Positions 32,866 through 53,376 of a DNA stretch of 64,000 bases are shown piece by piece. The notes beneath the pieces were generated by a model. That model had not been told where the DNA came from. It saw nothing but the letters and a program-made list of their open reading frames with translations, and did no database searches. The stretch's first letter is position 1. Every line of letters starts with the position of its first letter. The position numbers were made by a program, and so were the translations under genes. Source of the stretch: Escherichia coli (GTDB lineage Bacteria > Pseudomonadota > Gammaproteobacteria > Enterobacterales > Enterobacteriaceae); assembly GCF_003018255.1 (NCBI RefSeq), contig NZ_CP027440.1. One strand, given 5' to 3'.

Positions 32866-33330
32866 ATGGAAAAGAAATTACCCCGCATTAAAGCGCTGCT
32901 AACCCCCGGCGAAGTGGCAAAACGCAGCGGTGTGGCGGTATCGGCGCTGCATTTCTATGAAAGCAAAGGGTTGATTAGCAGTATCCGTAATAGTGGCAAT
33001 CAGCGGCGATATAAACGTGATGTGTTGCGATATGTCGCAATCATCAAAATTGCTCAGCGTATTGGCATTCCGCTGGCGACCATTCGTGAAGCATTTGGCG
33101 TGTTGCCCGAAGGGCATACATTAAGTGCGAAAGAGTGGAAACAGCTTTCGTCCCAATGGCGAGAAGAGTTGGATCGGCGCATTCATACCTTAGTGGCGCT
33201 GCGTGACGAGCTGGACGGATGTATTGGTTGTGGCTGCCTTTCGCGCAGTGATTGCCCATTGCGTAACCCGGGCGACCGCTTAGGAGAAGAAGGCACAGGC
33301 GCACGCTTGCTGGAAGATGAACAAAACTAA
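32866..33330 (+). CDS. soxR: MerR-family redox sensor SoxR ([2Fe-2S] cluster CIGCGC motif)
   Basis: 154 aa ORF recognised as SoxR. Confidence 0.95.
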
Positions 33331-33360
33331 AGCGCCACAAGGGCGCTTTAGTTTGTTTTC
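33329..33360. terminator. intrinsic terminator after soxR (AAAGCGCC-ACAA-GGGCGCTTT then T-rich)
   Basis: Inverted repeat overlapping soxR stop. Confidence 0.75.
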
Positions 33361-33470
33361 CGGTCTTTGTCTTTCTCTCTATCCCGCTGGTACACAGGAG
33401 GGTTTCCCCCGACGTCAACACACCTCATTCGAGCACGTGGTGGAGGTTCCGGTTGGTGTTGATGCTTTAA
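33330..33470 (-). ncRNA. possible RyjA-like small RNA locus (placement by synteny only)
   Basis: In K-12 as I recall, sRNA RyjA is encoded opposite to and just downstream of soxR; no sequence-level confirmation possible here. Confidence 0.3.
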
Positions 33471-39145: not shown

Positions 39146-39420
<275 letters not shown>

Positions 39421-49840: not shown

Positions 49841-50240
49841 GCCGGGGATATCCACCCGGCAATATGTGGATGCCTGATGCGACGCTTACCGCGTCTTATC
49901 AGGCCTACGCCAGACTGCGCAATAGCTTGATTTAGGGTGATTTTGTAGGTCGGATAAGGCGTTTACGCCGCATCCGACATCAATATCTGATGCGACGCTT
50001 GCCGCGTCTTATCAGGCCTACGCCAGACTGCGCAATAGCTTGATTTAGGGTGATTTTGTAGGTCGGATAAGGCGTTTACGCCGCATCCGACATCAATATC
50101 TGATGCGACGCTTACCGCGTCTTATCAGGCCTACGCCAGACTGCGCAATAGCCTGATTTAGCGTGATTTTGTAGGTCGGATAAGGCGTTTACGCCGCATC
50201 CGACATCAATGCCTGATGCGACGCTTACCGCGTCTTATCA
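49841..50240. repeat. BIME array: about 3.5 tandem 113-bp units of paired REP elements between gltP and yjcO
   Basis: TGATGCGACGCTT recurs at 49875, 49988, 50101, 50214. Confidence 0.92.
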
Positions 50241-50248
50241 GGCCTACC

Positions 50249-50989: not shown

Positions 50990-51018
50990 TAAAAAAACAG
51001 CCTCCGAAAGGAGGCTGT
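50990..51018 (-). terminator. intrinsic terminator after fdhF (ACAGCCTCC-GAAA-GGAGGCTGT then T-run on minus strand)
   Basis: Perfect inverted repeat preceded by A7 on plus strand. Confidence 0.8.
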
Positions 51019-51031
51019 AGAAAGGACTGTA

Positions 51032-53179
51032 TTACGCCAGTGCCGCTTCGCGCAGGCGAGTTTTCAACTTGTTGTACTCGTCAATCACGTACTGCTCGGC
51101 GGCGCGCTGATCGGCGATCGGCTCGACGCGCACGGCGCAGTATTTGTATTCCGGCGTTTTCGTAATCGGGCTTAAGTTTTCGGTCACCAGCTCGTTACAG
51201 GCACCAATCCACCACTGGTAGGTCATGTAAATCGCCCCTTTGTTCGGACGATCGCTGACCTGCGCACGGGTGATAATTTTGCCTTTACGCGAGTGCACCC
51301 AAACCAATGCCTCATCTTCAATACCCAGACGTTTGGCGTCTTCGGTATTGATTTGTGCGTAGCCAGGTTCATCAGCCAGCGCCGCCAGTGCCGCACAGTT
51401 ACCGGTCATCGAACGGCAAGAGTAGTGACCAACTTCACGCACCGTTGACAGTACCATCGGGTATTCGTCGGTGAGTTTGTCGATTGGCGCTACCCAGTCG
51501 CAGGTGAAGAACTGCGCCAGACCGTTCGGGGTATCAAACTTCTCTTTAAACAGATAAGAAGTCCCCTGATCGGCATCTGAAGTATCGCGGCAAGGCCACT
51601 GAATGAAGCCCAGTTCGCCCATTTTCTCGTAAGTCGCACCGTAGAAATCCGGGCACAGATGACGCAACTCGTCCCAGATCTCCTGGGTGTTGTTGTAGTG
51701 CATCGGATAACCCATACGAGTGGCAATTTCACTGATGATTTGCCAGTCCGTTTTCAGATCCCACTTCGGCTCAACCGCCTTGAAGAAACGCTGGAAGCCA
51801 CGGTCAGCCGCAGTAAACACGCCTTCATGCTCGCCCCACGACGTTGACGGTAAAATGACATCCGCCGCCGACGCGGTTTTGGTCATAAAGATGTCCTGAA
51901 CGATAACCAGTTCCAGATCTTCAAAGGCTTTACGTACTGCCGACAGTTCCGCGTCAGTTTGCAGCGGATCTTCGCCCATAATGTACGCCGCTCTCACTTC
52001 ACCATGCGCCACGCGGTGCGGCAGCTCGCTGATGCGATAGCCGGTATGAGCAGGCAGGCTTTCCACGCCCCAGGCTTTGGCGAATTTCTCGCGGTTAGCC
52101 GGATCTTTCACGTACTGATAGCCCGGATACGTATCCGGCAGCGCGCCCATATCGCAGGCACCCTGCACGTTGTTCTGACCACGAACCGGGTTTACACCCG
52201 CATGTGGCTTACCGAGGTTACCGGTCAGCATCGCGAGGCTGGTCAGAGAACGCACGGTTTCCACGCCCTGATAGAACTGGGTTACCCCCATGCCCCACAG
52301 GATGGCGGCGCTTTCTGCCTGGGCATACATCCGCGCCGCCTGACGAATCTCACTGGCGCTGACGCCGGTGATATCTTCAACCGACTCCGGCGTGTAGCCT
52401 TCAACGATTTTACGATACTCTTCAAAGCCTTCTGTACGGGAAGCGACGAACGCTTTGTCGTACAGATTTTCTTCAATAATGACATGGCCCATCGCATTCA
52501 ACAGCGCGATGTTCGAGCCGTTTTTCAATGCAATGTGCATGTCAGCAATGCGCGCGGTTTCAATTTTACGCGGATCGCAGACGATAATTTTCGCCCCGTT
52601 ACGTTTAGCGTTAATTACGTGATTCGCCACGATTGGGTGGGAATCCGCCGGGTTATACCCGAAAACGAACACTAAATCGGTATTATCAATTTCGTTAATA
52701 GCATTGCTCATTGCGCCATTACCGACCGATTGGTGCAGACCTGCAACCGATGGGCCGTGTCAGACACGAGCGCAGCAGTCAACGTTATTGGTACCAATAA
52801 CGGCGCGCGCAAATTTTTGCATTACATAGTTGGTTTCGTTACCCGTACCGCGCGAGGAGCCGGTCGTCTGGATGGCATCCGGACCGTACTTCTCTTTGAT
52901 GGCGCTCAGGCGCTCGGCAACGTAATTCAGTGCCTCATCCCAGGAAACAGGTTCGAGTTTGCCGCCACGCTGGCGACGGATCATGGGGGTTTTCAGGCGC
53001 GGGGTCAGGATCTGGGTATCGTTAATGAAGTCCCAGCCATAATAACCCTTCAGACACAGGGTACCCTGGTTGGTTTTCCCCTGCGCTGCCTCCGCCCGGA
53101 CGATTTTGCCGTTATCGACGACCAGGTTGATTTTGCAACCTGATGCGCAATAGGGGCAAACCGTGACGACTTTTTTCAT
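51032..53179 (-). CDS. fdhF: formate dehydrogenase H (selenoprotein; in-frame UGA at 52760-52762 decoded as selenocysteine, codon 140)
   Basis: ORF track splits gene into 139 aa (52760..53179) and 559 aa (51032..52711) pieces in the same frame; combined 715 codons matches FdhF. Confidence 0.93.
52715..52759 (-). other. SECIS stem-loop directly 3' of the fdhF UGA codon (mRNA: CACGGCCCAUCGGUUGCAGGUCUGCACCAAUCGGUCGG)
   Basis: Sequence read on minus strand matches the bacterial fdhF SECIS hairpin as I recall it. Confidence 0.85.
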
Positions 53180-53229: not shown

Positions 53230-53246
53230 ATGCATCTTTTATGCCA
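53230..53246 (-). promoter_or_regulatory. sigma-54 promoter of fdhF (TGGCATAAAAGATGCAT on minus strand)
   Basis: GG-N10-GC element about 50 bp upstream of fdhF start. Confidence 0.85.
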
Positions 53247-53376
53247 CATTTTATTTGGGGTCATTCCCTGATATTACGGGCACTATTTATTCAAAACTCT
53301 GACGAAAAACAGGCTGTCGTCAGTTTTGACGTGACGAAACGAAATACCGCGTGACAGCCATCACGCGGTAGACATT

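Follow-up and report, generated by a model that had tools for sequence, protein, structure and literature searches.

The in-frame UGA of Escherichia coli fdhF and its adjoining SECIS element: a known case of programmed selenocysteine recoding read from raw sequence

Introduction

Bacterial selenocysteine (Sec) recoding has its founding example in the SECIS element of fdhF, which was described in E. coli in the 1980s and 1990s. The product of the gene, formate dehydrogenase H (FdhF or FDH-H), is a Mo-bisPGD enzyme and forms the catalytic subunit of formate hydrogenlyase. The same arrangement is found in fdnG and fdoG, the genes of formate dehydrogenases N and O, where the in-frame UGA stands at a set distance upstream of a hairpin that binds SelB and has a bulged U and a GU-containing loop. 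In eukaryotes and archaea, SECIS elements are located in untranslated regions, mostly in the 3' UTR, and exert their effect over a distance via SBP2, with a kink-turn in the eukaryotic ones. Their purpose is shared with that of the fdhF element, since in both cases a UGA is read as Sec with the help of a structured mRNA segment and an elongation factor specialised for the task. In contrast, the fdhF SECIS lies inside the coding sequence, directly after the UGA, where its spacing is critical.

The minimal SECIS was defined as a 17-nt hairpin located 11 nt from the UGA, whose U17, G23, and U24 are required for recognition by SelB (PMC8659212, with reference to Liu et al. 1998). In fdhF, UGA140 is followed by the SECIS, which encodes residues 141-153, and recoding reaches ~30-40% in vivo and in vitro (PMC4513850). 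SelB binding and the insertion of Sec have been documented with the K-12 sequence, which is identical (PMC4513850).

We looked at fdhF in a window of 64 kb of E. coli DNA, the window being the whole stretch that was analysed. The gene is the same as fdhF of E. coli K-12 (b4079), with the same neighbours (gltP-yjcO-fdhF-mdtP) and the UGA at the same codon position, 140, and it does not differ from K-12 in the apical hairpin or in the determinants U17, G23, and U24. The mechanism is also that of fdnG and fdoG, which are separate genes lying outside the window. We put at about 98% the probability that the window carries E. coli fdhF with codon 140, a UGA, co-translationally recoded as Sec via the SECIS.

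Results

Translation of the minus strand from 53179 to 51032 gave a single frame of 2148 nt, divisible by 3 and closed by a TAA (Table 1). In the list of open reading frames, this frame is broken into two pieces, 52760..53179 (139 aa) and 51032..52711 (559 aa). An earlier note on this DNA had claimed that fdhF is reported as two ORFs parted by a TGA, and this is borne out, the list being split at codon 140. The downstream ORF is listed with 559 aa in place of the true 575 codons simply because its start was set at the first ATG past the TGA. Once the full downstream part is taken, both pieces lie in one frame and 139 + 1 + 575 codons make up the 715 that had been announced. A frame change between the two segments, which the same note had named as an observation that would speak against recoding, was looked for by translation and none was found. 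From the U of the UGA onward, the sequence is UGACACGGCCCAUCGGUUGCAGGUCUGCACCAAUCGGUCGGUAAUGGC.

Table 1. Features of the fdhF locus, with positions counted from the first letter of the window
Feature	Position	Strand	Description	Basis
fdhF CDS, formate dehydrogenase H	51032..53179	minus	715 codons + TAA, Sec at codon 140	single-frame translation
Recoded UGA140 (in-frame TGA)	52760..52762	minus		sole internal stop of the fdhF frame
SECIS region, Rfam RF01988 (SECIS_2)	52713..52767	minus	lower helix including the UGA, and apical hairpin	covariance-model match
Minimal 17-nt apical stem-loop	52732..52748	minus	GGUUGCAGGUCUGCACC; nt 15-31 from the U of the UGA	read directly
Sigma-54-type -24/-12 element (putative promoter)	53231..53246	minus	TGGCAT-N5-ATGCA	52 nt upstream of the fdhF ATG
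Terminator-like hairpin after fdhF	50990..51018	minus	ACAGCCUCC-UUUC-GGAGGCUGU, then U7; 14 nt past the stop codon	terminator scan
Terminator-like hairpin (palindrome) after mdtP	53345..53370			position relative to mdtP

The whole window was then compared with Rfam by cmscan. The SECIS_2 model was matched in fdhF over its entire length (model positions 1-55 of 55), with 87.1 bits against a gathering score of 70 and an E-value of 1.8e-17, which is far beyond chance. As had been proposed, the element adjoins the UGA on its 3' side: the stretch 52715..52762, which begins with the U of the UGA and ends at nt 48, holds the whole SECIS. The folding check that had been suggested came out positive, the minimum-free-energy fold of the 55 nt being equal to the Rfam consensus structure. 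The energy of this fold is -19.7 kcal/mol, with z = -1.23 against dinucleotide shuffles, meaning that its stability is unexceptional. Folding energy alone would therefore not single out the hairpin and the evidence lies in its specific pattern; the SECIS was assessed by the covariance model and by comparative data in preference to folding energy. The apical stem-loop begins 11 nt past the UGA, which is the spacing of a bacterial SECIS, and the bases contacted by SelB are present in the window, with U17 bulged and G23 and U24 located within the GGUC loop. Many E. coli genomes have exactly the same 48 nt starting at the UGA. Within the 55-nt model, two silent differences only separate the window from the GTDB representative of E. 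coli: an Arg codon changed from CGC to CGU, by which a C:G pair becomes U:G, and an Asn codon changed from AAC to AAU at an unpaired position. Both of these flank changes keep the modelled SECIS structure.

For the identification of the protein, FdhF was searched with Cys in place of the internal stop. It is identical at 713 of 715 residues to the crystallised E. coli FDH-H (PDB 1AA6, 1FDI, 1FDO, 2IV2, 7Z0T), and the differences from the K-12/PDB sequence are K289E and A390V, with no others. The Mo-ligand position 140 of formate dehydrogenase H, where Sec or Cys is looked for, is occupied by the UGA codon, which aligns with the non-standard residue X140 of the crystal-structure sequence; we take residue 140 in 1FDO/1AA6 to be a Sec bound to Mo. 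FdhF passes the NCBIfam equivalog TIGR01591 (Fdh-alpha) with 1095.7 bits against a cut-off of 666.25, and stays below the cut-off of the FDH-N equivalog TIGR01553 (248 bits vs 814). Its Pfam domains are, in order, PF04879 Molybdop_Fe4S4, PF00384 Molybdopterin, and the dinucleotide-binding PF01568 Molydop_binding.

Orthologous loci were collected with a DNA pattern for R-V-UGA-H-G-P-S-V-A-G in which the wobble positions were left free. At least 120 loci were found, in Enterobacterales and Pasteurellaceae. Among the fdhF matches listed there were 59 distinct 60-mers, and 45 distinct sequences entered the pair counts. Since the pattern required the TGA and the flanking amino acids and fixed U17, the conservation of the UGA and of U17 is outside its reach. 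Among the matches listed, G23 and U24 are invariant in 59/59 distinct orthologous sequences, U24 being a four-fold-degenerate wobble base. More generally, the wobble bases inside the apical hairpin are frozen among these matches: U24 of the GGU codon in 59/59, the Ala codon GCA in 58/59, and the Leu codon CUG in 58/59. Outside the hairpin, wobble sites are variable, with an entropy of 1.64 bits at nt 12 (Pro-CCN), 1.25 at column 47 (Gly-GGN), and 1.77 at column 56 (Ala-GCN). This opposition between frozen and free synonymous sites is the signature of selection acting on the RNA in addition to that on the protein.

The pairing of the SECIS was counted in the 45 sequences under two registers. 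With the register of the literature, in which U17 is bulged and U18:A29 is paired, 92.0% of the cells are paired and two pairs show compensatory changes. With that of Rfam, in which U17:A29 is paired and U18 is bulged, the values are 91.3% and a single compensatory pair, G15:C31 to U:A. When partners were slid as controls, 22-49% of the cells were paired vs 92%. The compensatory changes amount to 11 cells, G15:C31 having become U:A in five of the sequences and U18:A29 having become A:U in six, and there are no unpaired cells at pair 18:29 in the literature register. The covariation score, 0.116, exceeds that of 500/500 shuffles and of all slid controls (at most 0.081), while double changes concern 2/20 SECIS pairs, a pair count that is also reached by 151/500 shuffles. 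Covariation appears as modest support for the SECIS, supportive rather than an independent proof, in a sample that is phylogenetically narrow, coding, and selected for the TGA.

The change of U18:A29 to A18:U29 was observed in loci of the Pasteurellaceae type (L006, L033, L041, L051, L070, and L088). In five of these six loci, G15:C31 is also changed to U:A, and L088 has A15 opposite A31. As judged from these sequences, such changes are a better fit to the literature register, with U17 bulged, than to the Rfam SECIS_2 drawing, with U18 bulged. The Rfam register, having one compensatory pair vs two with that of the literature, was set aside.

Another locus, L117:1065-1124 (+), keeps the R-V-U-H-G-P-S-V-A-G context and the GGUC loop, and its sequence 3' of the loop is wholly different (…GCGGGUCUCGCGGCC…). 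This locus, which was left out of the SECIS pair counts, probably belongs to another formate dehydrogenase paralogue that has a SECIS of its own.

We then asked how widely the locus is distributed in E. coli. Of 5426 complete genomes, 5419 carry the 2.5-kb fdhF locus and 5418 match the 48-nt stretch with the UGA and the SECIS, and 5411 records reach at least 99% over the portion that aligns. Compared with the allele of strain 19KM1831, fdhF differs by 20 synonymous and 2 nonsynonymous codons, and these proportions indicate purifying selection.

Sec insertion also calls upon the sel genes. No tRNA gene was found in the 64-kb window and no sel genes are present on its annotated map. At the species level, selC is found in 5424/5426 complete E. 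coli genomes, and selAB and selD in 5425/5426 each. The queries were selAB and selD of K-12 and a tRNA-Sec sequence that matches annotated tRNA-Sec genes at 100%. The earlier note had placed the absence of this machinery from the genome among the observations that would refute recoding; that it is missing in the host is very unlikely, as judged from the species-level counts.

The gene map of the window reads mal-lamB ... lexA ... dnaB ... uvrA ... soxSR ... acs-nrf-gltP-yjcO-fdhF-mdtPON-yjcS-als. E. coli JNE23-011 is colinear with the window and 99.1-99.6% identical to it, and JNE112863 reaches 99.6% over the last 24 kb of the window. The source belongs to a sparsely sampled E. coli lineage, 99.6% identical to two Japanese isolates, because the next-best genomes, that is most other E. 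coli genomes, are only ~98.5% identical. Transcription of fdhF depends on sigma-54 and FhlA. Upstream of the gene, the pattern TGGCAY-N5-WTGCW has its sole match in the 64-kb window, where 0.61 matches are expected by chance, and from its position and the sigma-54/FhlA dependence of the gene we regard this element as the putative fdhF promoter (Table 1). With a strong terminator-like hairpin after fdhF and another terminator-like hairpin after mdtP, fdhF appears from the sequence to be a monocistronic, self-contained transcription unit.

Other RNA families were matched in the window. Eight Rfam naRNA4/CssrE matches (62.7-79.8 bits), which we take to be extragenic palindromes of the REP/BIME type, lie on the + strand at 3885-3955, 8114-8184, 39160-39412, and 49948-50244. 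Two triple arrays are among them: one lies upstream of acs and the other between gltP and yjcO, directly downstream of the fdhF neighbourhood. The Hfq-binding sRNA gene sraL (RyjA) was matched by Rfam at full length on the minus strand (33323-33463, 153.3 bits). It is convergent with soxR and abuts or overlaps the soxR 3' end, located at ~33330 on the map of the closest genome.

Discussion

The identity of the gene, its single frame, UGA140, and the adjacent SECIS support programmed recoding and not a pseudogene, as the earlier note had claimed. The frame and the UGA, the match of the SECIS in sequence and structure, the identity of the protein, and the conservation and covariation of the hairpin were all observed here. 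In the recoding process, the tRNA encoded by selC would be charged with Ser, which SelA would turn into Sec using selenophosphate from SelD. SelB, together with GTP and Sec-tRNA(Sec), would recognise the apical stem-loop by binding to the bulged U17 and to G23/U24 of the loop. A ribosome standing at the UGA would have melted the lower stem, and the mRNA entrance would then be occupied by the apical hairpin, 11 nt downstream. The ternary complex, tethered through SelB, would be favoured over RF2 for entry into the A site and Sec would be inserted, after which Sec140 would serve as a ligand to the molybdenum centre of FDH-H. From the published work on the same gene, we infer SelB binding, delivery of Sec, and recoding at ~30-40%.

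The K289E/A390V variant of FDH-H could be altered in catalysis or in complex assembly, or the silent changes flanking the SECIS could tune recoding. Nothing in the data points to either of these and the SECIS core is the same as in the reference, so that we consider such effects highly improbable. Hardly any credit can be given to a reading of the UGA without the Sec machinery, by near-cognate suppression with a Trp- or Cys-tRNA, in which the hairpin would merely slow the ribosome or RF2. Low-level SECIS-dependent read-through in the absence of selenium is on record for the fdhF element, as Liu, Reches and Engelberg-Kulka reportedly found in 1999. However, residue 140 of FDH-H is non-standard in the PDB, the bases named as conserved are those that contact SelB (U17, fixed by the pattern, G23, and U24) and not ones of a generic stem stability, and the sel machinery is near-universal in the species. 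In K-12, selB- and selC-dependent 75Se labelling of an 80-kDa product has been published. Finally, the two-piece mechanical ORF call has the look of a nonsense pseudogene, but the idea that fdhF is one in this strain, inactivated by a nonsense mutation to TGA and left with a decaying remnant of the frame downstream, was rejected and is effectively refuted by 575 stop-free codons past the TGA, 573 of them identical to the crystallised enzyme, by the same TGA and flank throughout the species, by a TGA widespread in the same protein context in the at least 120 loci of Enterobacterales and Pasteurellaceae (found with a pattern that required it), by the purifying selection that the excess of synonymous differences indicates, and by a curated SECIS model that matches directly 3' of the TGA.

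The expectation that automated callers will misannotate fdhF stands for naive ORF finders and fails for RefSeq, in which fdhF is one 2148-nt CDS in 2/2 genomes inspected. One RefSeq record labels it 'selenocysteine-containing', and the closest genome annotates the same span as one CDS. UGA140 of fdhF and its SECIS are the archetypal bacterial SECIS in the archetypal gene and are already known. The practical value of the finding is limited to annotation hygiene, that is, merging the two ORFs and labelling codon 140 as Sec. While it brings nothing new biologically, the fdhF case illustrates that programmed recoding is recognisable from raw sequence and need not be mistaken for a pseudogene.
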